A stretch of DNA of 62,266 nucleotides, taken from positions 1 through 62,266 of the forward strand of contig JAIUMM010000005.1 in NCBI GenBank assembly GCA_022565615.1. The letters run 5' to 3'. The stretch is from Nanobdellota archaeon. Lineage in GTDB: Archaea > Nanobdellota > Nanobdellia > Woesearchaeales > UBA583. Positions 11,886-42,300 of the stretch are shown one piece after another. The notes below the pieces were generated by a model. The model ran no database searches. It worked only from the letters and a program-made list of their open reading frames with translations, and was not told where the DNA came from. Each line of letters begins with the position of its first letter. Positions within the stretch are counted from its first letter, which is position 1. Both the position numbers and the translations under genes were made by a program.

Positions 11886-11996
11886 AATATGTATATTTTA
11901 AATATTTTATTTTAAATAAAAATGTAATTGTGAAGGAGGAGTTAAGAGGAATAGAATTATAGCTACATTTAAATATTGATTTTTATTATTTAAAAT

Positions 11997-12836
11997 ATGT
12001 CACAAGAATTTGTTGAAAATCATAAAAGAATTATTTATAATTCAAATACTCCAAATGCTATTTTAATGGAGAGTGTATTTGCACTGATGAATGAGGGTTC
12101 ATATGAAGCAAAGGAAGTATTATTTGATATTGCAAGAAATCATAAGTGTGAGTTAATTAGGCATGAGACTATTTTTGCAATTGGAGAAATTGGGCCAGAT
12201 AAGGATATACGAGATTTTTTAAAAGAAACATTAAATGTTGATAATTCCATTGTAGTGCAACATGAAGCGTTAGTTGTGCTTGGACTTTTAGGAGTTGAAG
12301 AAGACAAAGAGTTTTTAGAGCAATTTTTAGAAGATGAAAGAATTGAAATTTCACAAAGTGCTAAGGTAGGAATTCAGAGAATTGAGCAAACATTTGATTT
12401 TTACAATGAAGTCCTGAAAAGTGAAGAGAGTGAGAGAGAATTTAGGGAAAAATTGCAAGACACATTAAATGTATGTGAAAATGATAGAATTCAAATTATG
12501 TTTCAATTAATGAAGCATGATACTTCTAAGAATGCACAAGCAATTTATCAAAGATTTACACAAGATCCTTGTCCAATTGTAAGACATGAAGCTGCGTTTT
12601 GTTTAGGAGAGATGAAAAGTGATGAAGCGTATTCTTGTTTATCAAAAGGAGTTTTTGAACAAGAGTATCCTATTGCAATTCATGAAGCACTATTTGCACT
12701 TGGAACAACTGGAAGAGAAGAAGCACTTGAAGTATTAAATCAATTTATTAATGATGAAAATTATATCATCTCACAAAGTGCAGTGATTGGAAAGGAGAAG
12801 ATAGAACTTGTTAAAAATCCATATCGTGGTGTCTAA
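11997..12836 (+). CDS. HEAT-repeat protein with deoxyhypusine hydroxylase (DOHH)-like architecture
   Basis: Two-fold internal repeat with four HE motifs at H56-E57, H89-E90, H197-E198, H229-E230 (codons at 12162, 12261, 12585, 12681). Confidence 0.7.
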   Translation: MSQEFVENHKRIIYNSNTPNAILMESVFALMNEGSYEAKEVLFDIARNHKCELIRHETIFAIGEIGPDKDIRDFLKETLNVDNSIVVQHEALVVLGLLGVEEDKEFLEQFLEDERIEISQSAKVGIQRIEQTFDFYNEVLKSEESEREFREKLQDTLNVCENDRIQIMFQLMKHDTSKNAQAIYQRFTQDPCPIVRHEAAFCLGEMKSDEAYSCLSKGVFEQEYPIAIHEALFALGTTGREEALEVLNQFINDENYIISQSAVIGKEKIELVKNPYRGV

Positions 12837-12875
12837 GTTGCTTTGCAACTTGAATAGTTTTTTTTAAGTCATACA

Positions 12876-13454
12876 ATGAGTAAAAATAAATATATTAAAA
12901 TGGAAGATATTGATAGAAAAAAAGAAGTTGAAAAAGAAATTGAAAATTTAATTGATGAGTTTAAAAAAAATTCAGACAAATTTTTAACTGAAGAAGATTT
13001 AAGGTCTTACTTATATCATTTATTATTAGATAAATTTGGCAAACTTAAAAAAACCAAGAGCAATTCTAGTTCTATAGAATTACACTCTGAAGTTAGATGG
13101 TATGGTGAAAATAAAGGATTGAAATATCGTTCTGATTTAGTTATTTTTGATGTATCTACATTAGAGACAAAATCAAGATCAACTAAACTTCCTTCAAAAG
13201 GTTACGGATTTAACAATCCTTATATAATTATAGAACTTAAACTTAGAAGAATAAATGGTTCTTCTGATAAAAAATTTTTTGAAAGTTTGATTAATGATAG
13301 AAATAAATTAAATGAAATTAAAAATAGTATAAATAATCCAAAATTATACACTTATTTAATTGGTTTTGACAAAAAACTATCACTCAATTCTTCAAAATTT
13401 AAATTAGAATCAAATGACTTCCACAAAGAATATTATATAAAGTCTAATAAATAA
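12876..13454 (+). CDS. Putative PD-(D/E)XK nuclease-fold protein
   Basis: E...RSDLVIFD...IIIELK arrangement, typical of restriction-endonuclease-like folds. Confidence 0.5.
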   Translation: MSKNKYIKMEDIDRKKEVEKEIENLIDEFKKNSDKFLTEEDLRSYLYHLLLDKFGKLKKTKSNSSSIELHSEVRWYGENKGLKYRSDLVIFDVSTLETKSRSTKLPSKGYGFNNPYIIIELKLRRINGSSDKKFFESLINDRNKLNEIKNSINNPKLYTYLIGFDKKLSLNSSKFKLESNDFHKEYYIKSNK

Positions 13455-13515
13455 ATTTAAAATGTCTAACTATTAAAAATTTATTTATAATACTCCTACA
13501 AATTTTTTAAAGGAG

Positions 13516-13545: not shown

Positions 13546-14913
13546 ATGTTACAAAGAGTACAAGATACACACTATCCTCCTCTTACATCAGGAACTGATG
13601 GGTTTAGAGAAAGAGTTGAAAATTTTTCACCTCAAGGTATTAGAAGAATGGGGCAAAATTTAGCACAAAGATTGCCTACAAATTCAACATACGTTATTGC
13701 AAGAGATACCAGAGAGTCAGGAGTTGATTTTCAAAGATATTTAGAAGAAGGAATTAATGCAACTAATAGAGGAATTAAAGTAGAAGATGTAGGAGTTGTT
13801 CCAACTCCTCTTTTAAGTTATATCACAACTCACCCAAGAATTCAAGGAGGAGTAATGATTACAGCCTCACACAATCCATCACATGATAATGGATTTAAAT
13901 TTTTTGATGAACAAGGTAGAAAAATCTCAAAAGAAGATGAAACGCAATTAAGAGATGCGTATAACAACTCAAATATACATACATTTAATCACAAAAAAGT
14001 AAGTGTTAGTCCTCTTCATCCTTATTCTCAAGAATCAAAAGAGAAATATATTTCACAAATTAAAAGTTTATTAGAACAATCACAATTTCAAGGTAAAGTG
14101 GCAGTTGATTGTGCAAATGGTGCAACAGTTGATGTAGTAAGAGATATTTTCAAACATACAAAAAGAGGACTTGAATTTGAATTATTTGCAAATACACCAA
14201 ATGGTCATAATATTAATGAGAATTGTGGTGTAACAAGTCCCCAATTTTTAGAACAAATTTTAAGAAGAGGAGGTTATCAACTAGGAATTAGTTTTGATGG
14301 AGATGGGGATAGAGTTGGATTTGTAGATGAAAGAGGTCAAAGAATTGATGGAGATTTCGTATTAGGATATTTAGCAACAAAATTACACGAAGAAGGAAAA
14401 TTACAAGGAAGAGGAGTTGTGGTAACTCAGTACTCAAATTTAGCACTTGATGAGTATTTACAAGAACAAGGAATTGAAGTTCAAAGAGTTGAAAATGGAG
14501 ATAAAGCAGTGATGGCAAAATTACGAGCTAACAATTGGAGTTTTGGAGGAGAACACTCAGGACATATTATTTTAGATACTCAAATAGGAAGTGGAGATGG
14601 GATAAGAGCAGGAGTTGAAGTACTAAGACATTTAAGTCCAAAAAACTTAGTTTCTGAACAGTTAAATAATTTATATGTACCAAATCCTCAAATTCAAAAG
14701 AATATACAACTGGAGACAAGAATCTCATCTCTAAAAGATTTATCACAAGAAACTCAAGGAATAATTCAACAAGCTACAAAAGAAGTTGAAGAAGTAGGAG
14801 GAAGAGTCTTAATTAGACCTTCAGGAACTGAGCCAAAATTAAGAGTATTAGTTGAGAGTCCAAACTTAGTGTTTAATAAAGAAATTGTACAAAGAATAAA
14901 TAAACAATTTTAA
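13546..14913 (+). CDS. glmM: Phosphoglucosamine mutase (alpha-D-phosphohexomutase family)
   Basis: GTDG, RDTRESG, ITASHNP phosphoserine loop, DGDGDR metal loop, GGEHSGH, RPSGTEPKLRV. Confidence 0.8.
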   Translation: MLQRVQDTHYPPLTSGTDGFRERVENFSPQGIRRMGQNLAQRLPTNSTYVIARDTRESGVDFQRYLEEGINATNRGIKVEDVGVVPTPLLSYITTHPRIQGGVMITASHNPSHDNGFKFFDEQGRKISKEDETQLRDAYNNSNIHTFNHKKVSVSPLHPYSQESKEKYISQIKSLLEQSQFQGKVAVDCANGATVDVVRDIFKHTKRGLEFELFANTPNGHNINENCGVTSPQFLEQILRRGGYQLGISFDGDGDRVGFVDERGQRIDGDFVLGYLATKLHEEGKLQGRGVVVTQYSNLALDEYLQEQGIEVQRVENGDKAVMAKLRANNWSFGGEHSGHIILDTQIGSGDGIRAGVEVLRHLSPKNLVSEQLNNLYVPNPQIQKNIQLETRISSLKDLSQETQGIIQQATKEVEEVGGRVLIRPSGTEPKLRVLVESPNLVFNKEIVQRINKQF

Positions 14914-20956: not shown

Positions 20957-22471
20957 TTATTTAAAAATAGGTTTAGGATCACCAAATGAAGTTTGATTTG
21001 GAAATTCATCAAATATTTTTTGTGCATATGGATATAAACCTGAATGGAATAATATTGCTCTATGTTCTGAATTTTCTAAAAGCCATTTTCTAAGTGAAGT
21101 ATAATCATATTGGGTCCAAATTCTAACTCCAATTATTTTAGAGTTCATTAAGTTTGCTTGTTCAATAATTAAATTTGTTTGATTAGAGCTCGTAGTGATG
21201 TATGTAGTATGTAATGGAACAATTTTTTCTAATTCTTCAAAATATCTCTTAGGTGAATCATAATACTGCCCAGGATAAGATTCATAATTATCTTGAACAA
21301 CAATTAATTCATTTTTATCAAATTCGATAGATTGGTTACCAATTACGTTATTTCTAATTGGTGCAGTTCCTATTAAAATACCTGTTCCTTGATAATTAAT
21401 AGTATTTCCAATAAATCTATCTGCAGGGAAAAAAGAATCAATTCCTCTCTCTGCTAAATATTGAGCAGCAGCCATTTTATCAATATAATCACCACAAGCA
21501 ATAACTAAAGAAACATTATTTTCAATGGCTTGAGAAACTATTGAAGAAATTCCATGAGTATCAATAATTAAACAAATATTACCATAACATTTATTTGTAG
21601 GATAATTAACTTTATCGGGTAAAACTTCAAATCTAAAAATACCTTTTTCATCTGGAGCATACCATTTTCCTTTTGATTTAATAACTATTGTTGATGTTAA
21701 AGGTATTACTGTTGAAGAAGTTCCATTTATTGCTTTTAGAAGATTATCTCCTTCTCCATAAGGAATAATTTGTTCATATTGAGAAGGGTAAACATTAATT
21801 GTATTTGATGCCCAATCTCTTATAATTCTTTCAATTTGTGTCCCAATTATGGTATTATTATTTACTTCAATATAACTTTCTCCAATTATAATGGTTTGAA
21901 AATCCTCAGGTATGTTTATTTCTTGTTTTTTTATGTTATAAGGTTCAAATTGAAATTTTTCTTCATTGATTAAACTATGATAAATATTTTGTTTACTCTT
22001 GGATGAACTATTTAATAATAATGATTCATAGATTTTGTAATCTTTTTCACATTCTAATGAAACGAAATATAAAATTTCATATATTAAATTAGGATCATCA
22101 AATTCGTATAATGCTTTTTCATAATATTTTAGAGAATTACATTTTCGAGTTAAATTTTCAGTTACTTTTCCCAAAAAATATTCTCTCTCACCTAATGTGA
22201 AATTACTATTAATGTTATCATATAAAACATAGTAGTAATCATACCATTCAATTAAATATTCTTTAATTTCTTCATCATAACTATTCCAAATAGATTTAAA
22301 GTTATGTTCAGTTTTATTTTCTATAAATTTATCTTCCCAAATATTGTCTAAATTATTTGTTTGTGTAGGTATATTATTATTGAATGAAAATAATATTATC
22401 AAACTTGTAATTAAAATTAAACTTGATAACATTATGAGAAAAATTGTAATACCTTTTATTTTATTTTCCAT
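20957..22471 (-). CDS. Hypothetical exported or membrane-anchored protein
   Basis: N-terminal hydrophobic helix; 504-aa ORF; no family recognised. Confidence 0.7.
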   Translation of the reverse strand: MENKIKGITIFLIMLSSLILITSLIILFSFNNNIPTQTNNLDNIWEDKFIENKTEHNFKSIWNSYDEEIKEYLIEWYDYYYVLYDNINSNFTLGEREYFLGKVTENLTRKCNSLKYYEKALYEFDDPNLIYEILYFVSLECEKDYKIYESLLLNSSSKSKQNIYHSLINEEKFQFEPYNIKKQEINIPEDFQTIIIGESYIEVNNNTIIGTQIERIIRDWASNTINVYPSQYEQIIPYGEGDNLLKAINGTSSTVIPLTSTIVIKSKGKWYAPDEKGIFRFEVLPDKVNYPTNKCYGNICLIIDTHGISSIVSQAIENNVSLVIACGDYIDKMAAAQYLAERGIDSFFPADRFIGNTINYQGTGILIGTAPIRNNVIGNQSIEFDKNELIVVQDNYESYPGQYYDSPKRYFEELEKIVPLHTTYITTSSNQTNLIIEQANLMNSKIIGVRIWTQYDYTSLRKWLLENSEHRAILFHSGLYPYAQKIFDEFPNQTSFGDPKPIFK

Positions 22472-24776: not shown

Positions 24777-25901
24777 ATGGCTAATGAAGTATTACAAGCA
24801 AAAATTGAAGAACTCGAGTTAGAGCTTAAAAATACTAAAGTTAATAAAAGAACTGAAGCAGCTGTTGGTCAATTAAAAGGTAAAATTGCTAAATTAAAAG
24901 AAGAACTTGAAGCAAAATCAGGAGGAGGAAGTAGAGGAGAAGGATTTGCAGTAAAAAAAGAAGGGGATGCAACAGTTGGACTTTTAGGAAAACCAAGTGT
25001 TGGAAAATCTACTCTTCTTGGAAAAGTAACTAATAAAGAGAGTAAAATTGGAGCGTACGAGTTTACAACTCTTGATTGTGTGCCTGGACTTTTACACTTT
25101 AAACATACAAATTTACAAATTTTAGACTTACCAGGAATTATTGATAAAGCAGCTGACAATAGAGGATTTGGAAAAAAAGTATTAAGTGTTGTAAGAGCAT
25201 GTGATTTAGTTGTGTTAGTAATTGATGCAAGAAGACCTATTGAAGATATAGAGATGTTATTAAGAGAAACTGAAAATTCACAAATTAAATTTAATCAAGA
25301 TCCTCCAAATATTCAAGTGAGAAGAATGTCACATGGGGCAGTAAATATTCCTCTTAATAATTCTTCAGACAATTTACCAAATGAAATGGTTGCAGAAGTT
25401 TTAAAGGGAATGGGATATGTTAATGCAGAAGTAATTATTCATGAAAAAGATGCAACAGTTGATGATGTTATTGAAGCATGTTATTCTAATATTGTGTATA
25501 AAAAAGCAGTATTGTGTATAAATAAAATTGATTTGTTTTCAGTTGAAGAATTGAAGAAGATAAGAGATGAGATTCAAGAGAAATATCCTCAGTTTGAATT
25601 ATTTGGAATTTCAGCAGAAGCAGAAGTTAATATTGAAAAATTTAAAGATTTTATTTGGGATCAGTTAGGATTTATGTGGGTGTATTTAAAAGAACAAAGA
25701 AAAGATCCAGATTTAGAAAAACCTTTAGTTGTCCATCAAGGAGATACTATTAAAGATGTGTGTGAGAAAATACATAAAGACTTACTTAAAAAATTTAGAT
25801 ATGCTAAAATTAAAGGGAGAAGTGCTAAATTTGATTGGCAAAGAGTAGGACTTGAACATAAAGTGGAGGATAGAGATATAGTTGAAATCTATGCTAGATA
25901 G
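24777..25901 (+). CDS. drg: DRG-family (OBG superfamily) GTPase with TGS domain
   Basis: GKPSVGKST, YEFTTL, DLPGII, NKID, C-terminal TGS (QRVGLEHKVEDRDIVEI). Confidence 0.9.
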   Translation: MANEVLQAKIEELELELKNTKVNKRTEAAVGQLKGKIAKLKEELEAKSGGGSRGEGFAVKKEGDATVGLLGKPSVGKSTLLGKVTNKESKIGAYEFTTLDCVPGLLHFKHTNLQILDLPGIIDKAADNRGFGKKVLSVVRACDLVVLVIDARRPIEDIEMLLRETENSQIKFNQDPPNIQVRRMSHGAVNIPLNNSSDNLPNEMVAEVLKGMGYVNAEVIIHEKDATVDDVIEACYSNIVYKKAVLCINKIDLFSVEELKKIRDEIQEKYPQFELFGISAEAEVNIEKFKDFIWDQLGFMWVYLKEQRKDPDLEKPLVVHQGDTIKDVCEKIHKDLLKKFRYAKIKGRSAKFDWQRVGLEHKVEDRDIVEIYAR

Positions 25902-25909
25902 ATTTCAAC
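25881..25909. other. Perfect 12-bp inverted repeat spanning the drg stop codon
   Basis: GTTGAAATCTAT-gctag-ATAGATTTCAAC. Confidence 0.85.
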
Positions 25910-25950
25910 AGACAAGAACGCATGAAGTAAGTGTCTCGTATAGTTGAAAT
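25902..25950. repeat. 49-bp repeat, copy 1 (TTTCAAC...GTTGAAA ends)
   Basis: 41/49 identical to 26014..26062. Confidence 0.85.
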
Positions 25951-26013
25951 ATACGCTCGTTGAGCACCGTATGCTCAAAAATAGAATATTTTTGTTATTT
26001 GTCCTAGAGATAA

Positions 26014-26062
26014 GTTTCAACAGAAAATAACACATAGAGTAAGTGTTTTGTATAGTTGAAAT
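26014..26062. repeat. 49-bp repeat, copy 2
   Basis: 41/49 identical to 25902..25950; 63 bp lie between the copies. Confidence 0.85.
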
Positions 26063-26199
26063 CTATATTTAATAAAACGTATAATTCTCGAAAATTTTTG
26101 ATTTTTATTGTTTCTACCATAAGAAAAAATTAAATAATAATATATTTATTTAATAGAGATATCCGTTTATACATTGAAATTTATTTAGTGTATAGTCGG

Positions 26200-27114
26200 G
26201 TAGCATATGCTACTAGTTAAAAATTATATATTTTTATTGAATCTATGGAGATTCACAAACTAAGAATAGAATTTTTAAGATTAAAATGTAAATACTCTTA
26301 TTCAAAGAGTCAAATATTGATGAAAGAAAAATTTGATAGATATATACATATTTCTACATTGAAACGTTGGTATAAACGTTTTTCGAAAGAATAAAATTGG
26401 GACTTTAGATTTATCTCTAAAATCCCAAATAAGATTTATTACAAAGTTACTCAAGAATTAGAAGCTCAAATCGTTAGTTTTCGTAAGAAAACTGGATATG
26501 GAGCTTTAAAAATCAAACAATGTTTAAATCTTGATATTCATCAAGATACTGTTAATCAGGTTCTTAAAAGAAATAATCTTACTAGGATTGAGCATAATCG
26601 TTCATCTCGTGCTAAATATGTTCGTTTTGAACGTAAACATGCTAATTCTCTTTGGCATATTGATTATAGTGAATTTGGTAAAGAAGGTAAAATTATAGCA
26701 GTTTTTGATGATGCAACTCGATATTGTCTTGGAATTTTACATGTAAGAACTGTTACAACTCTTGTTGTAATTCAATTTTTAGATGAATTAATACAAATAT
26801 TTGAAATTCCAACTCAAATTATTAGTGATAATGGAAGTCCATATGGACTTAAAAGTAAATATTCCAAATTTGATATTTGGTGTAGAAGAAGAGGCATTGA
26901 GCATATTAGAATAAGAGTTAAAAGACCTCAGACAAATGGTAAAGTTGAGAGATTATTTGGTTCAATTTATAAAGAAATTGAATTTTGTAATAATGATTTA
27001 GAACAATTTAGAATGAGATATAATCATTTTAGACCTCATCATAGTTTAAAAAATAAAACTCCAGCAGAAGAATTTTACAATTTTCAAAGAAAATTGAGAT
27101 GATGACATATGTCA
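26200..27114 (+). mobile_element. IS481-family insertion sequence, defective
   Basis: DDE transposase frame flanked by palindromes GTAGCATATGCTAC (26200-26213) and TGACATATGTCA (27103-27114). The element ends are inferred. Confidence 0.7.
26245..27102 (+). pseudogene. IS481-family (rve/DDE) transposase with a premature stop; not in the ORF track
   Basis: My translation: MEIHKLR...STLKRWYKRFSKE*NWDF...RFERKHANSLWHIDY...DDATRY...ISDNGSPY...PQTNGKVER...YNHFRPHHSLKNKTPAE...LR*; in-frame TAA at 26392-26394. Confidence 0.9.
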
Positions 27115-27163
27115 CCTGCTTTCACATATATATTTTTTTATAGATAAATTTAAATAAGAAATA

Positions 27164-28381
27164 ATGAGTTTATTTAATATGAATTTTAATTTAATTTTAC
27201 TTAAATCTGATAATATGTTTATTGGAATTAATTTTTTACTATATTTAGTTATCTCATCTATTATTTCATTTTTATCTATATACTTAAATTCATTTGGTTT
27301 AAGTGAGTCAGAGATAAGTTTTTTATTTATGATTTCAAATTTCATAACTTTATTTTTATTTATTATATTTCCAATAGTAATTATATTTTTTAATATTTAT
27401 AAAATATTTTTAGTTTCATTACTTGTATTTATAAGTAGTTTATTTTTGTTTCTTCAAAATAACTTAATTATAATATATTTTTCTTTATTCATATTTTTAA
27501 TTGGGAGAGTTTTAAGTAGAAATTCTTCAACATTAATTTTTAAAAATTTAGTTAATAGTTTTGATTTTAGTAAAATTCAAGGTTTATATTTTGTTTTTAT
27601 TAATTTATCGTGGATAATTTCTCCAGTTTTATTTGGTTTTATAATTAATTTATATGGGATAAATTTAATGTTTATTATATCAATTTTAATAATTATAATT
27701 TGTACTTTTTTGTTCACTTTAAATTTCAAATCTAAAATGATTACTGTCTCTGAGAATACTTTAAATATGAAAAATTTTAAAGAAATTGATTTGAATTTTT
27801 TTAAAATTGTAATACAAAAAAATTTTTTATTAATTTATATGACTTCTTTAGGTCCTTATATTTGGTTTATATTAACTTATGTATATATGCCTTTATTTAT
27901 TGTATTTAACTTTGAAGAGGTTTATTACGTTGGTTTATATATAGCCTTAATCAATATACTAAATTTAATTACTTCATATTATTTGATAAAATTTATTTCA
28001 TTCTTTTCAATAAAAAAATTATATGTATTAGGATATTTTTTCTCTTTTATAGGAACATTTTCTATATTTTTTATAAATCCTTTTTATACAATATTGATTA
28101 CTCTTATTATAAATATATTTGTAGGAGTTTTAGAACCTATTAATGAAATTATTTTTTTCAAATTATTTTCAGGAAATAATGCTAACCTATCATATTCAAT
28201 TTATAATTCCAGTTCAGAGGTTAGCAGTATAATTACTTTACTTTTAATTGGTTTAATATTAACTATTACTGAATTTTTTAATATAATATTCATTATAATT
28301 TCATTATTATTTTTTTTACTTTTTATATTAAGTCTAAAAATACCTTTATTATATGGCGATAATTCAACTAAAATTAGTTAA
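27164..28381 (+). CDS. MFS-type transporter (about 12 TM), extremely AT-rich
   Basis: 405 aa of alternating hydrophobic helices; YLNSFGLSESEIS and SWIISPVLFGFI resemble MFS motifs. Confidence 0.7.
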   Translation: MSLFNMNFNLILLKSDNMFIGINFLLYLVISSIISFLSIYLNSFGLSESEISFLFMISNFITLFLFIIFPIVIIFFNIYKIFLVSLLVFISSLFLFLQNNLIIIYFSLFIFLIGRVLSRNSSTLIFKNLVNSFDFSKIQGLYFVFINLSWIISPVLFGFIINLYGINLMFIISILIIIICTFLFTLNFKSKMITVSENTLNMKNFKEIDLNFFKIVIQKNFLLIYMTSLGPYIWFILTYVYMPLFIVFNFEEVYYVGLYIALINILNLITSYYLIKFISFFSIKKLYVLGYFFSFIGTFSIFFINPFYTILITLIINIFVGVLEPINEIIFFKLFSGNNANLSYSIYNSSSEVSSIITLLLIGLILTITEFFNIIFIIISLLFFLLFILSLKIPLLYGDNSTKIS

Positions 28382-28402
28382 TATTATTTTAAAAAATTAG
28401 AA

Positions 28403-28966
28403 TTAATTTTCTTCTAATGCTAGAAGTCTTTCATACTCTTCTTCTACTAAATTAGCCATTTGAATTCCAGTTGAACTTGCATCTCCAAAACCAATTAAGT
28501 AATTATCTCCAACTACAGTAATAGGAGTTCCAATTCTCTCATTAGCTAAACCTGTTGTTGTTTCAATTGCTTCTTGTAGAGCTTCTTGACCAGCTGGTGT
28601 TCTAATATTGTGAATTACGATTTGTAAATAGGGGTATGTAGCTAAAATATTTGGATTAAATTCACTTTGTCTAATACAATGAGGACACGTTGGGTCGTGA
28701 AATTGATGCATTACTACAACTGGTCCTTCATAGCCTGCAGCAGGTCCTAAACCTGTACTTTCTCCTTCTCCTTGATTTAATACTAGAACTAATATCACAA
28801 GTAGTATTACTGCTGCAATAATGATTGGAATATTATTTTTTAGTATTTTAACTAAACCTCCTGATTTTTTAAGTTCATCTCTTCTTTCTTTTTTAGATTT
28901 AACTTCATTTTCATGATTATTTACATGAGTTGAAGAATCTTTTTTTTTAATCTTAGATTTAACCAT
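28403..28966 (-). CDS. Membrane-anchored thioredoxin/glutaredoxin-fold protein
   Basis: Single TM helix, CPHC redox motif, GTPITVVGD cis-Pro loop. Confidence 0.75.
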   Translation of the reverse strand: MVKSKIKKKDSSTHVNNHENEVKSKKERRDELKKSGGLVKILKNNIPIIIAAVILLVILVLVLNQGEGESTGLGPAAGYEGPVVVMHQFHDPTCPHCIRQSEFNPNILATYPYLQIVIHNIRTPAGQEALQEAIETTTGLANERIGTPITVVGDNYLIGFGDASSTGIQMANLVEEEYERLLALEEN

Positions 28967-29002
28967 CTTGATATTTATTTAATATTTTCTACATTTAAAA
29001 AA

Positions 29003-29632
29003 CTATTGTATGTATTTGTGAAGTGAATCTTTAAGTACAATGTGATGTTTTAGACATCTGCAAGAATATCCTTCTTTTTCATCACCTATTAAAATTATTG
29101 GTGAATTGTAATGAGCGGGTTTTGAATTAATTTCTCTTTGTGTTCGAGTTGCTTTTCTATTACAACCTTCAAATTCACAAATTCCACTAAGTTTAGTGAT
29201 ATAATTTGCTCTACTTAGTAAATCTCCCATTGGTCCAAATGTTTCTCCTCTAAAATCTAAATCTAATCCTGCACAAATTATATACACTTCTTTTTTTAAT
29301 AACTCATCGATTTGAGAAATTATTTTCAAATCAAAAAATTGACATTCATCAATAATTACAACATCATGAAAGTTATTTTTAAAAAATTCATTACTCAATT
29401 CAGGATTCTTAGCATTAAGTAATTTAAATTCTACACCACTTAGATTTAAATTTGAACGGGTATCAATTTTTCTAGTGTCAATATCAGGTTTTATTGCTAA
29501 AATTGAAATATTTGTCATATAACTTAGAGTGTCTAATATTCTCATAATTTCTCTACTTTTACCTGATTTCATAGGTCCACAAATTACATGAAGTTCTCCA
29601 GGTAATATGTGAGAGTGTTGATGTGAATTCAT
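29003..29632 (-). CDS. tdk: Thymidine kinase
   Basis: GPMKSGKS, IDECQFF, GLDLDFRGETFG, Cys zinc ligands. Confidence 0.95.
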   Translation of the reverse strand: MNSHQHSHILPGELHVICGPMKSGKSREIMRILDTLSYMTNISILAIKPDIDTRKIDTRSNLNLSGVEFKLLNAKNPELSNEFFKNNFHDVVIIDECQFFDLKIISQIDELLKKEVYIICAGLDLDFRGETFGPMGDLLSRANYITKLSGICEFEGCNRKATRTQREINSKPAHYNSPIILIGDEKEGYSCRCLKHHIVLKDSLHKYIQ

Positions 29633-29819
29633 TATATGTAATATTATATCTTAGTATTTAAAAATTATTTGTTTAAAAAATTGCAATTAAAAAAAGATGT
29701 TTAAGTAAATAGTTGACTATTTAGCAAAATAATATAATAAACACAAAGCTTTTTAAAGTGTTTAAAATTAATCTTAATTGATAGCATTTTAACTATTATT
29801 AGTATTGATTTAATAATTT

Positions 29820-29902
29820 GCCAAGATCGCATAACTCGGTATTGCGCTTGACTTGAAATCAAGTTCCACATGGAATTCTGGGTTCAAATCCCAGTCTTGG
29901 CG
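29820..29902 (+). tRNA. tRNA-Ser(TGA)
   Basis: Acceptor stem GCCAAGA/TCTTGGC, anticodon arm CTTGA-CT-TGA-AA-TCAAG, long variable arm, GGTTCAAATCC, discriminator G, CCA not encoded. Confidence 0.95.
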
Positions 29903-30019
29903 TTTTTCGTTTCACTCAAAACTTAATTCTGAAATTTTCACCATTATGTGGTCACTCATTCTTCGTTCTCACATCCGAAAATCAAAGATTTTCTAGGACT
30001 TCAAATCCCTGTCTTGGCG
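29903..30019 (+). repeat. 117-bp tRNA-Ser-associated unit, copy B
   Basis: Colinear with 5832..5948; 30000-30021 repeats 29883-29904 (tRNA 3' end plus 2 flanking nt) at 21/22. Confidence 0.9.
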
Positions 30020-30109
30020 TTATATATTTTTCATCTTAGATTTTCTGCGTTACATTTTTATGATTTGAACGAAGTTCCTTTGGTGCAAAAAATTTTTAAT
30101 TTTTCAGCA

Positions 30110-30166
30110 CAAATCCTAAGTATTGGCGTTTTTTGTTTCACTCAAAACTTAATTCTGAAATTCTCA
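30110..30166 (+). repeat. Partial third copy: tRNA 3' end plus the start of the 117-bp unit
   Basis: CAAATCCTAAGTATTGGCGTTTTTTGTTTCACTCAAAACTTAATTCTGAAATTCTCA closely matches 29885-29940. Confidence 0.85.
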
Positions 30167-30207
30167 TATTCTAAACATTTATATAATTCAATATTTTAAA
30201 TTTTAAT

Positions 30208-31314
30208 ATGAATAAGATAATTTTAGTAATAACAATTTTAATGAGTTTGATTATTAGTGGATGTTCTTCTCAAGAATTTATTGAAAGTGAACAAGAAAGG
30301 GTTTTAATAACTAATCTTGAAAGTCCTTGGGGAATGGCATTTGTTAATGAAGAGATGGGTGAGATACTTATTACACAAAGAAGAGGTCAATTAAAGTTAT
30401 TTAATATAGAAACTCAAGAACTCAAAGAGATTTTAGGAACTCCTCAGGTTGTAAGTTCTGGTCAAGGAGGGTTATTGGATGTTGATTATGATAACGGATT
30501 TGTATATCTAGCGTATTCTTCTAGTTCAAGTGAGAGTCAAGGTGTTGCAACACATGTTGGAAGAGGAGAGTTAAATTTAGAAGAATTTAGAATTGAAAAT
30601 TTTGAAGTACTTAGAACTATTGAACCATTTCAAAGAGGAGGATCACATTTTGGTTCAAGAGTGTTAGTTGTTGACGAATATATTTTTGTAACTACTGGGG
30701 ATAGAGGTTCAAAAGATTTTAGTGAGATTCATCCTTCTCAAAATACAAGTAATGAAATTGGAACTATATTGAGATTGTATAAAAATGGTTCAATTCCTCC
30801 TTATAATCCTTATGTTAATGCTGGAGGATTTATTGATTCAATTTATACATATGGACATAGAAACGTTCAGGGAATTGTGAATTTCAATGGAGAAATTTTT
30901 GTAAGTGAACATGGTGAGCAAGATGGAGATATGATTCACAAATTAGTTGAAGGTGGAAATTATGGTTGGCCTCTTGTTCATTATGGTTGTACATATGCTA
31001 TTGGAAGAGAAATTGGAGGATTTGCACATGAAAGGGATGATATAGGAAATCCTCTTCATCATTGGGAGTGTGGAAGTGGAGGTTTTCCACCAGCTGGAAT
31101 GGATGTATTTAATGATAAATTATATGTTGGAAATTTAAGAGGACAATATGTAGGAGAATTTGAATTTTTAAGAGATAATGAGAGCACAATTATTGGACTT
31201 GAAGAAGTAGGTAAATATGTTAAAGGGGAACGTATTAGAGATATTATGAAATTTGAAGGAGGAATTTATGTAATAACAGATAGTGGAAAACTAGTTCAAA
31301 TAAATTTGAGTTAA
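30208..31314 (+). CDS. PQQ-dependent sugar dehydrogenase (glucose/sorbosone, YliI-like), lipoprotein-type signal
   Basis: LESPWGMAF, GQGGLLDV, HFGSRV, TTGDRG, YGHRNVQG, EHG, GGNYGWP; IISGC lipobox. Confidence 0.9.
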   Translation: MNKIILVITILMSLIISGCSSQEFIESEQERVLITNLESPWGMAFVNEEMGEILITQRRGQLKLFNIETQELKEILGTPQVVSSGQGGLLDVDYDNGFVYLAYSSSSSESQGVATHVGRGELNLEEFRIENFEVLRTIEPFQRGGSHFGSRVLVVDEYIFVTTGDRGSKDFSEIHPSQNTSNEIGTILRLYKNGSIPPYNPYVNAGGFIDSIYTYGHRNVQGIVNFNGEIFVSEHGEQDGDMIHKLVEGGNYGWPLVHYGCTYAIGREIGGFAHERDDIGNPLHHWECGSGGFPPAGMDVFNDKLYVGNLRGQYVGEFEFLRDNESTIIGLEEVGKYVKGERIRDIMKFEGGIYVITDSGKLVQINLS

Positions 31315-35197: not shown

Positions 35198-36961
35198 ATG
35201 AATATGAATAAATTTTTGATGTCTTTTTTAATGGTGTTTTTATTGGTGTTGGTAGGAGGAGTAAATATTTTTGGAGATGTTTACAGAGACTGTTATTCCC
35301 AATGTACTTTAGATGGAGGAAATGCGCAATTTTGTATTGACTTGTGTGGTTCAATTCCAGGTGCTTCATCATCTCCAAATGTTGATTTAAACCCAGGTGG
35401 TCTTTTTGAAGATGTTGCTCCAGATCCTTCAGATAATGATGCAGCAGCTGCTGTAACTGCTCCACAAGGAACTGGAGATTCAGATGCTCTTGTGAATAAT
35501 CCTCAAGGAGTCCCAGTCTCAGCAACTTCTCCTCCTCAACCTAGACCTGAAAATTTAGTTAGAGTTGGGCCTACAACTCCTGAGGAAGTTACTGCTGCTG
35601 AAATAGTGGGAGATGCTCCTACTCCTGAAGAAGCTGTTAGAAGGGTTGCAGATTCTCCAGATTTACCTGCAAATTATAGAATTCAAGCACTTAGAGCATT
35701 AACTCAAGATGAGTGTGGAGAGGGTATGTTTTCTTTTTTTTGTACTTGGTTTGATAGACCTCAAGAAAGAGCAGCAGAACAATTAAGAGAGGGTTTTAGA
35801 GCTCAAACAACTGGAAATTTTTCTCTTGAAGAACATAATGAAATTCTAAGAAGAGAAGCTAGAAGCGTAATTCCAACTAATGTTCCTAATTGTGAAGATT
35901 CATTAAGTTCTCAATGTGGTCAAAGTTTAAGGAATTTTGATTGTCAAGGTGATCAAACTTGTGAACAAAGTATTGAGTTAGCTCAATTAGGAAGACAAGA
36001 AGCACTTAATCAACAAAGAATTCCAAATTCAGGTATGATTAGAGCTGCTCAAATGCTCAGAGTAAGTCCTCAAGCTTCTGCTACTTCAGGTATGATTCAA
36101 AATTTATTAGGAATTGAGTTATCATTAATTCAAGAAGGTTCAAGTATAGATCAAATTTTGAAGTATGGAACACCTGAGCAAGTTTGTTTTGCAAAAGTGG
36201 ATTCTTTTATTAGTGTAAATGGACTTCAAGTTGAAGGACAAGTTATGGAAGTTGATGATGAAACTACTGGAATGAGTTCAGTTATTAGGGCGTGTGATAA
36301 TAGAAATTTTCAAATTTGTGCTGATTTAAGAGCTGAGAGATCTGGAATTTATTTTAATAATTCGTTTACTCTTTTTGTTCATTTATATGTTAGAAATGCA
36401 GAAGATTTTCCTCAAATGGTGACAGTACAAGCAGAGTTGAAATCTGGAGGAGGAAGAGAAGAAAAAATTAATGTAGTTGAGTTAAGTGAAGATGTTCCAG
36501 GGAGTTTTATTCTTCTTCAACCAGGTCAAACATTTTCAAGAACGATTTATTTACCTGAAACTCAAGCATTTGTAGGAGAAGAAAATTTAAAAGAAATTTA
36601 TGGGAATGTGGTGATGGGTGTGTTTGAAGCATTAGGAGTTTCTGAGCAAGGGAATTCTCAAGAGCAACAACAAGCTCAAAATCATCAATTGTCTCAAGAT
36701 GAACTTGAGAGTTTAAGTGATGAAGAATTACAGCAGTTAATGACTGAAATGGAACAAAATCAAGCAACACAAACTCAAGGTTCTAATTTAGATGGAGTTA
36801 GTGGGGGAAGATTAGTGTATGCTCTAGATTATCCTATTTTAACTTTGAGGGGAACTTCTGGAAGTAATCCTTCTAAAGAAGTTGAAATGAGTGGAGCTAA
36901 TATGACTCAAGGTTCAAATCAACAATCAGTAGCTGTTGTAAGAAGAGTTTCTTTGGACTAA
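35198..36961 (+). CDS. Secreted or surface hypothetical protein, Cys-containing with a Pro/Ala/Asp-rich linker
   Basis: Signal peptide, CYSQC...FCIDLC, low-complexity acidic linker, Gln-rich segment. Confidence 0.75.
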   Translation: MNMNKFLMSFLMVFLLVLVGGVNIFGDVYRDCYSQCTLDGGNAQFCIDLCGSIPGASSSPNVDLNPGGLFEDVAPDPSDNDAAAAVTAPQGTGDSDALVNNPQGVPVSATSPPQPRPENLVRVGPTTPEEVTAAEIVGDAPTPEEAVRRVADSPDLPANYRIQALRALTQDECGEGMFSFFCTWFDRPQERAAEQLREGFRAQTTGNFSLEEHNEILRREARSVIPTNVPNCEDSLSSQCGQSLRNFDCQGDQTCEQSIELAQLGRQEALNQQRIPNSGMIRAAQMLRVSPQASATSGMIQNLLGIELSLIQEGSSIDQILKYGTPEQVCFAKVDSFISVNGLQVEGQVMEVDDETTGMSSVIRACDNRNFQICADLRAERSGIYFNNSFTLFVHLYVRNAEDFPQMVTVQAELKSGGGREEKINVVELSEDVPGSFILLQPGQTFSRTIYLPETQAFVGEENLKEIYGNVVMGVFEALGVSEQGNSQEQQQAQNHQLSQDELESLSDEELQQLMTEMEQNQATQTQGSNLDGVSGGRLVYALDYPILTLRGTSGSNPSKEVEMSGANMTQGSNQQSVAVVRRVSLD

Positions 36962-37114
36962 AAATACTGTAATTATTTTTTTCAACAATGGTGTAATTAG
37001 AGATTGGCGTAAGTCAATTTTGATTAAAGTATTTAATATTTAATTAAATATAGTTAACAATTAATTGAAATTATTGTATTTGAGAGTGAGAACAAACTTA
37101 TTTAAATATTTTTA

Positions 37115-37642
37115 TTGAAAATTTATTTGATGGCTGAATTTAGTGATACTCCTTTAATGGAAATTACTCTTAGAAGATATGAACAACCTCATGGTCTTGA
37201 TAAGAGAGGGACTCTGAGAAAAATTTGTTTATCTTTGGGTTTGTTACAACCTGGAGATAGTCGAGATGTTATTGTTGATATTTTACTTGTTTTGGAAAAT
37301 GTAAAACATTTAAAAAAAGATTTAAGTGCAGTTGATATTAAACAACAAGTTCTTCAAATTAGAACTACATATGGACTCTCAGATTTAGGAACTGCTGATT
37401 CTAATATTAGAAGACAATTAAAAAGACTCAGAGATGTGTATTTAGTTGAAAAGATAAGAAATAATTATAGGATTATAGAATTTTCTGATTTGAAAATCTT
37501 ATTTGAACAAAGAATTAAAACAATTATTTTAAATTCAATTGTTGAGAGAAATAATGAGTATTTTGAATATTATTCTCAATTTGAAGGGATTGATACTAGT
37601 AATGAATCAAAAAATATAAAAAGCGAGGAATTACAAAAATAA
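37115..37642 (+). CDS. Hypothetical protein with a probable winged-helix region; true start probably 37130
   Basis: EITLRRYE...CLSLGLLQPGDSRDVIVDIL...ADSNIRRQLKRLRDVYLVEK; TTTAAATA about 22 nt before 37130. Confidence 0.65.
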   Translation: MKIYLMAEFSDTPLMEITLRRYEQPHGLDKRGTLRKICLSLGLLQPGDSRDVIVDILLVLENVKHLKKDLSAVDIKQQVLQIRTTYGLSDLGTADSNIRRQLKRLRDVYLVEKIRNNYRIIEFSDLKILFEQRIKTIILNSIVERNNEYFEYYSQFEGIDTSNESKNIKSEELQK

Positions 37643-37644
37643 TA

Positions 37645-38562
37645 TTGTTGAAAATGGAATCATTAATAAATGTTAATAAAAAAACTAGCGTAATTTTTAC
37701 AATTTTACTCAGTATGCTTTTAATTGCAGGATGTACTGGTGGAGTTGGAGGAGGAGATAATGTAAGAACAGCAAGTATAGGGGGGAGTTCAGCTAATAAT
37801 AATGGGGCTGTTGTTTTGAATTTTGTTGAGAATAATCCTCCTTCTCAGATGTTTAAGGGAGAGAGATATGATTTTGCGTTTGTGATTTCAAATTATCAAA
37901 TGCATGAAGTTGATGATTTACGATTAAGAATTACAGGTTTTGATAGGGGAAATGTAAATGGACTTCCTGAACAAGATACAGTAAGTTCAATTCCTTCTGC
38001 TTCAGAGGTTGCAGGTGCTGGAATTAAAACAGATCATTTTTATAGTGATGTTGTAGTTGATGATTTTACAAGAGAATTTCCTTTAAATCCTAGAATTAGA
38101 TATTGTTATACTCAAACTTCATTTAGAAAACAAGAAATATGTGTTCCTAGTTTAAATAATGTTTGTGGAAGAGATGTAGTTGTTGCAAATACTGTTGAGA
38201 CAAATGGGCCTTTTAATTTTAGGGTTCAAAATGTAAATTCAATTGGGGGGACTATTAGAATTGATTTTGAAGTTACAAATAGACTTGGTGGAAGAGTTGT
38301 TGATGAATGTTTTGGAAGAGAAGGATTTGCAAGTGAATACTCAGGTGTTGTTGCAAGATTAGGTACTGTTGAGGGAAATTGTAGAGCTACTGGGACAAAT
38401 GATTATTTGTTTGCAAATGGAAGAGCTAATTTTTTTTGTGAATTTTCAAGAACTGGTGATGATTCTTATCCTGCTCAGTTATATGTAGAAGCACAGAGTT
38501 TATATGAACAGGAGAAGAGATTAAATATTATGGTAAGAGATCCTAGTTATGGGGTTGGTTAA
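37645..38562 (+). CDS. Putative lipoprotein with a beta-rich, Cys-containing ectodomain
   Basis: LLIAGC lipobox, Gly-rich linker, several Cys; 2 nt from the upstream gene. Confidence 0.7.
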   Translation: MLKMESLINVNKKTSVIFTILLSMLLIAGCTGGVGGGDNVRTASIGGSSANNNGAVVLNFVENNPPSQMFKGERYDFAFVISNYQMHEVDDLRLRITGFDRGNVNGLPEQDTVSSIPSASEVAGAGIKTDHFYSDVVVDDFTREFPLNPRIRYCYTQTSFRKQEICVPSLNNVCGRDVVVANTVETNGPFNFRVQNVNSIGGTIRIDFEVTNRLGGRVVDECFGREGFASEYSGVVARLGTVEGNCRATGTNDYLFANGRANFFCEFSRTGDDSYPAQLYVEAQSLYEQEKRLNIMVRDPSYGVG

Positions 38563-38613
38563 ATATTTTTACCAATTAATTTTTATTTAAGTATTAAATT
38601 ATATTTTTAATTT

Positions 38614-39792
38614 TTAAGTTCTATTTAAATTTCCTTGTGATATTATTATCAGATTATTTAATACTAGTTGAATAATTGGAAGGGAGTATTGTTCTAATTG
38701 GTGTTGTGTTGTAGAATCTAAGTCTTGGAGTATTCTTGAGTATGAATTAATTCCTTGAAAATAGGTGAATGTGAGTAATGCTACTTCTTCAGGAGTTGGC
38801 TGTCTTGAAATATCAATATTGAAAAATTGTGCAAGTTGAAATATATGTAGAAAACCTGCTTCTAGTTCTCTTTGTCTTTGTTCATTAGAATTCATAGAAG
38901 CATATCTTCCATTTAAATTGAAATAATTTTCAACCCAATTAATTGTTTGAGGTTTTATTTGAAAAGGGCCTCTTGCATCTGCTGAACTAGTTGTTGTTCT
39001 TCCAAAATTATTTTCAATGAGTAAAAGTCCTACTAAAAGTTGGTAATATGAAGTGTGAATTGAGTGAATTTGATTATTTGAAAGTTGAGATGGGTTTTCA
39101 AGTGAATGCAGAATAAATCTATTGAGTTGAGGATTTATTTGATTAGGGTAAAAAGTGATTTGTCGTTCTTCTTCTTGATAACTTCCATTGGGCATTCTTT
39201 CAATAAGTACTTGAAGCTGAGGTCTAGGACTTGCTGAAATAATAGGGAGTATTTGAGAAAATCGTTGTAGTGCAAGAGGAGCTTCAAGTTGATATCTATA
39301 TACGTTCCATATAAATATGAAATCTTTTTGATCTTGTGTTCTTTGAGATTCATTTATGGATAAGATTTCTTGAGCATAACTTCTAAGTTGGAGTATTTGT
39401 GAATTTTCAAGGGGGTTTATATGTTGTGTTTGATGAATCCAACGTAAATATCTTAAATATTCTTCAAATGTTCCTTCAATTATGGTATCAGGTCTTTGTT
39501 GAGGCCTTATTGTTTCATTATTTGGGGTTAAAAACTGAGTGTTTGTATTTTGTGTGATACTATCTTGAGTTTGTTCGCTTGAGATTTGAGGTGTTGAAGT
39601 TTCTTGTATTGAAATTTGGGAGGGTGAGAGTGGATAGGGATTATTATGAGAAGTTTGATTTGGAAATGATGAAAATGCTAATCCTAATGTGAGTACTTTG
39701 AGAAATGATTTTATTTTTGACATAAATACTATGTTAGATTTTATTTTTAAATAAGTTTGCATTATTATTAAAATATTAATGAAAAAGTTCAT
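38614..39792 (-). CDS. Secreted protein with a lytic transglycosylase (SLT, lysozyme-like) domain; true start probably 39723
   Basis: LLIENNFG...SSADARGPFQIKPQT matches the SLT ExxF...SxxGAxGxxQxxPxT motif; TYFQG resembles AYNAG; leader MSKIKSFLKVLTLGLAFSS. Confidence 0.65.
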   Translation of the reverse strand: MNFFINILIIMQTYLKIKSNIVFMSKIKSFLKVLTLGLAFSSFPNQTSHNNPYPLSPSQISIQETSTPQISSEQTQDSITQNTNTQFLTPNNETIRPQQRPDTIIEGTFEEYLRYLRWIHQTQHINPLENSQILQLRSYAQEILSINESQRTQDQKDFIFIWNVYRYQLEAPLALQRFSQILPIISASPRPQLQVLIERMPNGSYQEEERQITFYPNQINPQLNRFILHSLENPSQLSNNQIHSIHTSYYQLLVGLLLIENNFGRTTTSSADARGPFQIKPQTINWVENYFNLNGRYASMNSNEQRQRELEAGFLHIFQLAQFFNIDISRQPTPEEVALLTFTYFQGINSYSRILQDLDSTTQHQLEQYSLPIIQLVLNNLIIISQGNLNRT

Positions 39793-41257: not shown

Positions 41258-41575
41258 ATGTCACTGGAAAATAAAGTATCCTCTAATATTAAACTATCTC
41301 CTAAGTCTTTTGCATTAGCAGGAGGAATTATGTTAGGTAGTTTTTTATCTCCTGTGTATGCTAATGATAGTTATAATTCTCAAACACAAACTCCACAATA
41401 TCCTACTTGTGAGTATTTAATTCAAAACCCACAGTATGTTGGAGATAGATGTACTTTATCTTCAGGTCAAGTAGTTCCAATTGTTAGAACTAATACGAAT
41501 TCTCAAGGAAATTTAATTCAAGAATATATTGCACAAGTTGAATCGCAAGTTCCTTGGGGTAGAAATAGAAATTAA
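41258..41575 (+). CDS. Small secreted protein with two Cys
   Basis: Signal peptide ending PVYA/ND; divergent from ycaO. Confidence 0.75.
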   Translation: MSLENKVSSNIKLSPKSFALAGGIMLGSFLSPVYANDSYNSQTQTPQYPTCEYLIQNPQYVGDRCTLSSGQVVPIVRTNTNSQGNLIQEYIAQVESQVPWGRNRN

Positions 41576-41603
41576 ATTAGTGTATTTAGATAGTATTTTT
41601 GTG

Positions 41604-42292: not shown

Positions 42293-42300
42293 TTTATAAA
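42293..42300 (+). promoter_or_regulatory. Archaeal TATA box
   Basis: TTTATAAA 21 nt before the ATG at 42322. Confidence 0.6.

Follow-up and report, generated by a model that had tools for sequence, protein, structure and literature searches.

The 3' end of drg, a gene encoding a GTPase of the DRG/OBG family, was analyzed in a contig of a Nanobdellota archaeon (JAIUMM010000005.1, assembly GCA_022565615.1; the whole 62,266-nt stretch is called the window below). The gene is followed by an array of short hairpin modules, in which its last codons recur twice, once in a recoded form which differs by silent changes only. Related arrays were found at the drg stop codon of six further lineages, all in independent assemblies. 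We tentatively read the drg 3' end as a hot spot of recombination, at which miniature, non-autonomous cassettes carrying replacement gene ends may have been serially recombined. We lean towards this reading, with reserve, because empty sites exist in relatives, very close pairs are polymorphic for the array, the arrays recur in independent assemblies, the gene ends differ silently, one module is shared with elements at tRNA-Ser and nrdR genes, and the cargo next to the array varies.

Organization of the drg array

The drg product (374 aa; Pfam domains MMR_HSR1, MMR_HSR1_Xtn and TGS) has its closest homologues in metagenome-assembled genomes labelled Woesearchaeota or Nanoarchaeia, in which it is named OBG GTPase. 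The array reads alpha (the real gene end) - U1 - beta - T1 - alpha remnant - U2 - gamma - T2, and is followed by an IS481-like insertion sequence and an MFS transporter gene (Table 1). Three copies of the gene end, repeat units, a perfect 12-bp hairpin, a TGAGCA-N5-TGCTCA hairpin, an IS481 remnant and a transporter had all been reported in a preliminary description of this DNA, and all were found again at the same positions.

In modules of the alpha/U kind, TAY-GCN-AGR-stop is joined by A', which repeats the preceding V/I-E-I-Y codons in inverted orientation, and by a GC-rich centre of 30 nt (..AAGAACG..loop..GTGTCTC..). In those of the beta/T kind, ATH-GTN/ATH-GAR-ATH-TAY-GYN-CGN-stop is joined by a short stretch complementary to TAYGY, by an A/T hairpin and by a T-run. 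The two repeat units (25903-25950 and 26015-26062) are identical at 41 of 48 positions, and are extended by repeat search to 58 nt with 83% identity (25896-25953 and 26008-26065). A degenerate 48-mer matches at both units only, none being expected in shuffled sequences. The GC content of the window is 26.9%, and the region of the first centre (25902-25939) stands out from it (39% vs. 27%). Among the ORFs (open reading frames) of at least 90 aa, drg is the sole gene in the window with its last 24 nt recurring downstream. Copy 2 (beta) differs from the real drg end at 6 nt, all silent, and specifies the same peptide and a stop; its stop codon opens the hairpin TGAGCA-CCGTA-TGCTCA (25961-25977). 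Copy 3 (gamma) matches the real end over its first 16 nt, counted from 26051, and is a perfect complement of 25898-25909.

Table 1. Features of the drg array, its cargo and the tRNA-Ser arrays (positions in the window)
Feature	Position	Strand	Evidence
drg, target gene	24777-25901	+	Pfam domains, homologue names
alpha end, functional last 8 codons IVEIYAR* (AGA Arg, TAG stop), ATAGTTGAAATCTATGCTAGATAG	25878-25901	+	ATA GTT GAA ATC TAT GCT AGA TAG
Hairpin H1, GTTGAAATCTAT / ATAGATTTCAAC, perfect 12 bp, 5-nt loop GCTAG, encloses stop codon	25881-25892 / 25898-25909	+	Pairing
Centre 1, GC-rich hairpin module AGACAAGAACGCATGAAGTAAGTGTCTCGT	25910-25939	+	nhmmer profile, E 3e-8
beta end (copy 2), displaced recoded IVEIYAR* (TAC, CGT, TGA)	25940-25963	+	ATA GTT GAA ATA TAC GCT CGT TGA
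T module 1: TGAGCA-N5-TGCTCA hairpin, A/T hairpin CAAAAATAGAATATTTTTG (25976-25994), T-rich run	25961-26003	+	Sequence
Decayed alpha-2 remnant GTCCTAGAGATAAG and inverted arm A'' ATAAGTTTCAAC	26001-26021	+	Same position: TACGCTAGATAGATTT in L011; TACGCAAGGTAA in L001, L006 and L023
Centre 2, diverged copy, 83% identical to unit 1	26022-26051	+	nhmmer, E 5e-4
gamma end (copy 3), IVEIYI*	26052-26072	+	ATA GTT GAA ATC TAT ATT TAA
T module 2, CTCGAAAATTTTTGATTTTTATTGT...	26078-26117	+	Resembles second T module of L007
IS481-like insertion sequence	26173-27155	+	rve and rve_3 domains; candidate 15-nt terminal inverted repeats 26173-87 / 27141-55
MFS transporter	27164-28381	+	Pfam MFS_1
tRNA-Ser(tga) array	29819-30162	+	tRNA (29819-29903), F1, tRNA 3'-end copy (30000-30019), F2, decayed copy (30111-30128), F1 fragment
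tRNA-Ser(gct), F1 mini-element, decayed tRNA 3'-end copy	5832-6032	-	tRNA at 5948-6032

Silent recoding of the displaced ends

Alpha and beta ends were compared in the window, L001, L018, L020 and L023 (relatives are designated L001-L054). The two ends differ at 6-8 of 24 positions in each of these lineages, and all 34 changes are either silent or replace a stop codon by another. The chance that random substitution leaves only silent differences is P ≤ 4e-5 in each of the five lineages (P = 4e-5 in the window). In the beta end of L007, one nonsense change was found. Beta copies carry the residues proper to their lineage: I-I in L018 and L020 and I-V in the others; L023 shares Y-V-R with its sister L048. 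Given the silent-only divergence and the lineage-matched residues, both kinds of end have served as the real drg end in their own lineage; this agrees with the earlier proposal that the extra copies are replacement or displaced ends held under purifying selection. The silent-only divergence of stacked ends is an unusually clean signature that each copy was a working gene end.

The Arg codon is always AGR in alpha (six lineages) and always CGN in beta. CGN makes up 10.5% of the Arg codons of the window, drg itself uses AGA at 16 of 16 positions, and the codons of copy 2 are atypical for the window. Stop codons in 43 window ORFs are TAA (39) or TAG (4); TGA is found as a stop only at the displaced drg end (25961-25963) and at the end of the insertion sequence ORF (27100-27102). 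In L011 the functional drg stop is TGA. The alpha 24-mers of L001, L020 and L023 are 92-96% identical, while their drg genes are only 71-78% identical. Copies 1 and 3, which match over 16 nt in the window, share in L001 the four silent variants of that lineage over 12 nt, an indication that the two copies evolve in concert within a lineage. The AGR/CGN split, the similarity of the alpha 24-mers and the concerted copies point to constraints or histories beyond coding.

Occupied, empty and traceless sites in relatives

The drg loci of relatives were collected by exact-protein look-ups and pattern scans, and number more than 40 in about 25 related lineages. Arrays resembling that of the window reside in L001 (DRG 91% identical), L007-L010 (93%; four runs, the contig being found in 17 samples), L023 (79%), L020 (71%) and L018 (69%), and a decayed array in L002-5. 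The centre module after drg is detected by nhmmer also in L001, L007, L020 and L023; that of L018 is recognisable in alignment only. The repeat is seen most clearly in L023, whose array spans 2.5 periods of about 106 nt; its units 1 and 3 are identical over 35 nt. Related T modules occur in tandem in L006, L001, L007 and L023. The real end of L006 is followed by two T modules and by an intact TACGCAAGGTAA, a 12-mer which in L001 forms the real end. The tandem modules of L006 are 47 nt each, every one beginning with a YAR*-like 12-mer, and their order differs from that of L001. The L001 orthologue of gamma reads IVEIYIR*, and carries the synonymous variants proper to L001.

Empty sites, the existence of which had been predicted, were found in L011 (DRG 81% identical at the amino acid level), L006 (93%) and L048 (78%). 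In these lineages drg ends with the beta-type codons ...GARATATAYGYNCGNTRR, and is directly followed by GCRTAT..CTCAAAAAT-N5-ATTTTTG-TTG. The arrangement is colinear with 25940-26003 of the window, and T module 1 contains a stretch of 23 nt identical to the drg flank of L011. Copy 2 of the window is thus the counterpart of the drg end in use in these relatives, complete with its own terminator-like flank. Spacers in L002 and L048 measure 76-80 nt. Traces of the array are absent from L013-17, L019, L021-22, L032-37, L050-52 and L054.

Presence and absence of the cassette split very close pairs. The drg genes of L007 (cassette present) and L006 (absent) are 95% identical in nucleotides and 98.7% in amino acids; the pairs L023/L048 and L020/L051 are split likewise. 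These splits rule out an assembly artefact, and show recent gain or loss.

Hairpins at the stop codon

Over six lineages, 92% of the cells of hairpin H1 and of the 5-pair stem of the centre are paired. Five pairs change on both sides, and all are within the 12 pairs of H1. The covariation score of H1 plus the centre stem is higher than in 500 of 500 shuffles and in every slid control. Whether functional or displaced, beta-type ends likewise possess a compensated stop hairpin of their own (TAYGC/GCRTA, read by inspection), which occurs as TATGC/GCATA, TACGT/ACGTA, TACGC/GCGTA or TATGTT/AACATA. A hairpin enclosing the stop codon is thus maintained in both kinds of end; whether it acts in the RNA, at the 3' end of the transcript, or in the DNA cannot be told from the sequence. 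The palindrome spanning the stop may be read as 11-7-11, and its arms covary with the silent codon changes; pairing of nucleic acid strands therefore fits better than a fixed protein-binding site.

None of 200 shuffles folds as well as the region of 249 nt (z = -3.15). If A' is paired instead with the left part of beta, the result is no better than in shuffles. Searched with Rfam 15, the whole window has only two tRNA-Ser genes which reach the gathering score, and a scan of 25700-30300 gave no match in the drg array even at E ≤ 10. Of the two options for this region raised before along with integration, a structural role finds support, by covariation, for the hairpin over the stop only, and no Rfam family matches; a switchable C-terminus is not borne out, since alpha and beta encode the same peptide.

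Related elements at tRNA-Ser, nrdR and another gene

The centre is not restricted to drg. In L004 and L012 (DRG 89% identical) the centre profile has a match (E 2e-6) flanked by tRNA-Ser(tga) on one side and by the last 17 nt of the tRNA, directly repeated, on the other. Within this element the 3' half of the tRNA recurs in inverted and decayed form, as the drg end recurs inverted in U, and the F2 mini-element of L004 carries the drg-type centre. In L020 the centre has the 3' end of another gene on either side, the two copies being identical over at least 37 nt; the nrdR 5' end is present twice, as 33-nt copies (32/33 identical) with a related element between them. The 137-nt L020 element (14351-14512, minus strand) lies between the dUTPase-like and nrdR genes, and supplies GGAGG before the real start. 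The two genes abut in L051 (13940-13960), where the nrdR site is unoccupied.

Both tRNA-Ser genes of the window have mini-elements and copies of their own 3' ends next to them (Table 1). F1 at tRNA-Ser(gct) shares 34 identical nt with F1 at tRNA-Ser(tga), 24 kb away. The duplicated tRNA ends are about 19-24 nt long, start in the T-loop and stop shortly behind the tRNA, the layout reviewed for the att sites of bacterial and archaeal integrases (PMC8371274); archaeal integrases of the pT26-2 type target tRNA-Ser TGA and GCT (PMC8371274). The order of elements at tRNA-Ser(tga) varies, being tRNA-F2-copy-F1 in L007 and tRNA-F1-copy in L048. In L023, an element of 330 nt lies between tRNA-Ser and a copy of about 55 nt running from the anticodon loop, with F1 next; a small ORF in this element is ribbon-helix-helix-like by eye, and has no Pfam hit. 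The distance from drg to tRNA-Ser(tga) is 1.5-4 kb, and all the L020 copies are found at most 10 kb from drg. Likeness of the drg centre to the F1 core GAGAACGAAGAATGAGTGAC was noted by eye, is not supported by nhmmer, and is not relied on.

Cargo next to the array

The IS481-like element and the MFS gene are absent in L001, L002, L007 and L048, as in every relative examined. In relatives drg is followed directly by a gene for a 187-aa protein and by a thymidine kinase gene, which marks the segment 26173-28381 as a window-specific insertion. The rve ORF of the IS481-like element (26245-27100) is split by an in-frame TAA at 26392, and has TGA as stop. In L023 the interval from the drg array to a decayed centre-beta-T remnant (13836-13912) holds a bacterial-type groES-groEL pair (11557-13491). 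Over 71 nt, this remnant shares 76% identity with U1-beta1-T1 (by-eye reading), and tRNA-Ser-type modules precede it; the segment 13640-13912 mixes tRNA-Ser-type and drg-type modules, and tRNA-Ser is inverted relative to the window. Synteny in L006 breaks right after the last pseudo-end, and the downstream genes are different. Judging from these differences among the window, L023 and L006, the drg flank is a variable, gene-capturing site; the integration reading proposed earlier fits such variable cargo (IS481-like and MFS in the window, groES-groEL in L023).

Proposed serial recombination of cassettes and alternative explanations

Under serial recombination, each cassette would bring an in-frame replacement for the last 4-8 drg codons. 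An alpha/U cassette would supply ...Y-A-R-stop with an AGR codon, the inverted V/I-E-I-Y copy closing the 12-bp hairpin over the stop, and then the centre. A beta/T cassette would supply identical residues with a CGN codon for Arg, a short stop hairpin, an A/T hairpin and a T-run able to end transcription. By recombining into drg, with a crossover within the last 8 codons, the cassette would make its own end the functional one; the previous end would be displaced downstream, and persist as a pseudo-end. Recombination between repeated ends would delete cassettes and produce the empty relatives, and cargo such as the IS481-like element and the MFS gene would be captured after the array. A recombinase with its gene elsewhere may catalyse the events in trans, or they may proceed by short-homology recombination; hairpins and T-runs probably provide the drg transcript with a replacement 3' end and terminator. 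Scars of repeated integration, as the preliminary description saw the array, are in keeping with the replacement ends, the empty sites, the cargo and the centre at tRNA-Ser. A simple series of scars is not what is observed, two cassette types alternating at the site, both of them coding-competent and fitted to the residues of the lineage.

Several results weigh against serial recombination of cassettes. Neither tyrosine or serine recombinases nor casposase or Cas1 were found in the window (Pfam, essentially all ORFs of at least 90 aa); the earlier statement that no recombinase is encoded there holds for the tyrosine and serine types, the sole recombination-type Pfam hit being the DDE (rve) ORF. 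A recombinase was found neither within 10 kb of the annotated related loci (precomputed Pfam hits) nor among the few L020 and L023 ORFs tested. Larger islands carrying integrases, expected from the preliminary description, were never seen at the drg site in the lineages and loci surveyed. The modules are absent from the viral contigs, Joint Genome Institute (JGI) metagenome contigs, and phage and plasmid records searched, where a match to the 49-mer repeat unit had been thought possible. The repeated sequence is not conserved between lineages, and ATAGTTGAAAT, once suggested as a conserved core, drifts with the synonymous codon changes (GTCGAGAT, ATCGAAAT and others). By what is established on recombinase synapsis, the 62-nt alpha/U unit would be too short for excision as a double-stranded circle. 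In L020, a single element backbone is found at three targets with duplications of 33 nt and at least 37 nt, which is unusual for a site-specific integrase. The lineage-specific residues in alpha and beta point to long co-residence and cycling within a lineage, not to arrival from outside. On account of the failure to find a recombinase, the lack of an evident conserved core, the tiny units, the varied duplications and the lineage adaptation, two rivals stay alive, local duplication and target-duplicating insertion.

In the first of these no mobile element is needed: a structured terminator after drg would grow and shrink by tandem duplication, hairpin slippage and unequal crossing-over, a course of events that we consider possible, though rather unlikely. 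Duplications would begin at the left foot of the stop hairpins, and hence include the last codons; deletions would repeatedly put a downstream copy in functional position, so that all copies stay coding-competent; the centre would have reached tRNA-Ser by ectopic gene conversion. Such a history suits the periodic array of L023, the tandem T modules of L006 and their different order in L001, the concerted copies 1 and 3, the lineage-specific residues of both alpha and beta, the failure to find a recombinase, and the short distances between drg and tRNA-Ser(tga) and among the L020 copies. It is at odds with the presence of F1 at two window tRNA-Ser genes 24 kb apart, with the nrdR insertion of L020, a clean gain relative to L051, with the position of foreign cargo exactly at arrays, with alpha 24-mers far more alike than the drg genes to which they belong, and with the patchy distribution among relatives. 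The second rival, in our estimate quite improbable, invokes insertions resembling MITEs (miniature inverted-repeat transposable elements), or made by template switching of a polymerase, which would duplicate 19-37 nt of the target and leave the gene end that was hit intact. Fresh, near-identical duplications are indeed found (32/33 nt at nrdR, at least 37/37 at the other L020 gene, 19-24 nt at tRNA-Ser), and the arms of the centre (…CAAGAAC… / …GTGTCT…), which are far apart in the L020 elements, behave as short terminal inverted repeats. Casposons, found at aEF-2 and tRNA 3' ends with target-site duplications and tandem stacking (PMC4779613), offer a partial precedent from Archaea. Yet a transposase ruler gives duplications of fixed length, and their length here is variable; no Cas1 or other candidate transposase was found, and the ends of the IS481-like element are unrelated to the modules. 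Moreover, the drg copies differ at 25-33% of positions, always silently, which neutral decay of an unused copy would not yield.

We give little credit to the region being a cis-acting RNA (a switch in the 3' untranslated region or terminator) or a device swapping the C-terminus or 3' untranslated region, with the coding-like copies as parts of alternative pairings. The covarying stop hairpin, the compensated TAYGC/GCRTA hairpins of beta-type ends, the folding of the 249-nt region and the perfect complementarity of 25898-25909 to copies 1 and 3 speak for it. The pairing of A' with the left part of beta at the level of shuffles, the lack of Rfam matches and the unchanged peptide speak against it; in addition, the whole structure is missing in many close relatives, and a pairing constraint leaves unexplained why only third codon positions change. 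That strain variants of the drg end were joined in tandem during assembly is scarcely credible. The copies do differ as alleles would, by silent changes only, and the related contig L004 ends inside a repeat. However, the sequence between copies is not drg, one contig was seen in 17 samples, and related arrays with the same alpha-U-beta order occur at the same site in independent assemblies from different projects and assemblers, which answers the concern about a chimeric assembly voiced earlier.

Comparison with known systems

The closest parallels to the cassettes are att-type arrays. Repeats of the target end flank the units and the gene stays intact (three copies at drg, three 3'-end copies at tRNA-Ser, the nrdR 5' end in L020), and in the unoccupied sites of L006, L011 and L048 only beta + T is present. 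That decayed, att-flanked elements (cis-mobilizable elements, CIMEs) accrete in tandem where a target gene ends (3') is documented for ICESt1/ICESt3 at fda in Streptococcus (PMC5704250). As at drg, att-like repeats of the target end are found there; as proposed for drg, each element brings a replacement end, and decayed elements devoid of recombination genes are pushed downstream and mobilised in trans (PMC5704250). The drg units differ in being 38-140 nt rather than kilobases long, in residing in a DPANN host, in being of two alternating kinds, and in having displaced ends which are coding-competent; moreover, an integrase was not found. Archaeal tyrosine integrases use sublocations in the T stem-loop or at the 3' terminus of tRNA genes (PMC8371274). 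Stacked elements at tRNA-Ser(tga) and tRNA-Ser(gct) of the window, with duplications from the T-loop to past the tRNA end, match this description, and one tRNA-Ser element shares the drg-type centre. At drg, in contrast, it is a protein-coding segment that is duplicated, and this segment drifts by synonymous changes; a conserved core or overlap is not evident, and neither an int gene nor a fragment of one was found. The known kind is thus that of att-type arrays of replacement gene ends; new are the miniature size, the DPANN host, the location at drg and the unusually clean silent recoding.

Casposons depend on Cas1, insert at 3'-distal aEF-2 or tRNA genes, are flanked by direct target repeats, and may be stacked in tandem (PMC4779613). 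Insertion in Archaea at the 3' end of translational GTPase or tRNA genes, with direct repeats, is a common trait, but casposons are large and encode Cas1 and PolB. Their duplications are of fixed length (~14-15 bp). Those of the drg type vary from 11 to 37 nt and no Cas1 was found, and casposons, as other transposons making duplications of fixed length, were rejected. Integrons were reportedly found in Archaea by Ghaly et al. in 2022. The arrays of attC sites recall drg in the imperfect hairpin bounded by TTTCAAC...GTTGAAA, in the arrangement of units and in the capture of adjacent genes; the drg units carry no ORFs, no intI was found, and AAC and GTT follow the drg codons. The attC consensus is matched at 6/7 + 6/7 positions in the window (RYYYAAC, GTTRRRY); relatives have GAC or GAT and GTC, GTG or ATT, and this assignment was rejected as well. 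Bacterial interspersed mosaic elements (BIMEs) of E. coli and neisserial intergenic mosaic elements (NIMEs/dRS3) are dispersed in hundreds of copies, and the Neisseria repeats are integration sites of prophages. Short arrays of hairpin modules in alternating order, location at gene ends and shuffling of modules between strains are features in common with drg; the coding end of the upstream gene is not duplicated in BIMEs and NIMEs.

Other candidates were discarded. Diversity-generating retroelements do not fit, as the differences (C>A, T>C, A>C, A>T, A>G, G>A) are all silent and not adenine-specific, the repeat of 24 nt is too short (about 100 nt or more would be expected), and no reverse transcriptase was found. 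The arms of Xer/dif sites (11-6-11, IMEX-type) would have to be constant; those at drg differ between close lineages, and change in compensating fashion. Splicing of alpha to beta by a bulge-helix-bulge intron is discounted, no exon-exon pairing or bulge-helix-bulge being drawable by inspection, as are read-through and ribosome hopping from alpha to beta, the spacing of 62 nt being out of frame, stops intervening and the product being identical. A mini-ORF of 10 codons (GTG-TCT-NNN plus beta) has a start-like codon in most copies, but no ribosome-binding site, and the tRNA-Ser module cannot encode it. Minus-strand ORFs at 25889-26035 and 26004-26120 have no frame conserved among lineages. C/D-box and H/ACA small RNAs and ribozymes were dismissed, the boxes being absent and Rfam giving no hit. 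Mimicry of a tRNA T-arm by the drg end (ATAG-TTGAAAT-CTAT vs. CTGGG-TTCAAAT-CCCAG) is seen only in the window and L011, and fails in the cassette-bearing L001, L007, L020 and L023. The modules are not MITEs of the neighbouring IS481-like element, the candidate ends of which (ATTGAAATTTATTTA...) are unrelated to them.

DPANN archaea have tiny genomes, and their gain of genes is poorly understood. The drg locus offers a concrete example, open to comparison, of a hot spot where an essential-type GTPase gene ends; hot spots of gene-end recombination and capture are usually found at tRNA genes. Stacked silent ends make the history of the site readable, and the succession of gene end, inverted copy, GC-rich hairpin and recoded end provides a search image for the same process elsewhere. 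It is conceivable, although on balance unlikely, that DPANN (Woesearchaeota-like) archaea hold a so far undescribed class of 40-140-nt cassettes, made up by a recoded gene terminus and a terminator or ribosome-binding site, and stacked at drg, tRNA-Ser, nrdR and other genes by trans-acting or homology-guided recombination; they would form an integron-like platform able to capture MFS or bacterial groESL genes without harm to the target gene. Should a dedicated enzyme mobilise the cassettes, they would be a new type of small archaeal mobile element; if there is none, the locus would be a good case of hairpin-driven local duplication under selection.

Other features of the window

An open frame of more than 2,211 codons starts at about 55300 (plus strand) and runs off the end of the window at 62266; its hydrophobic N-terminus suggests a giant surface protein. 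Many ORFs (up to 1,289 aa) in the segments 20957-22471, 35198-39792 and 41258-50404 lack Pfam matches at E ≤ 1e-5, and several of these ORFs lack them even at E ≤ 0.01. Among them lies a YcaO gene (39814-41100).

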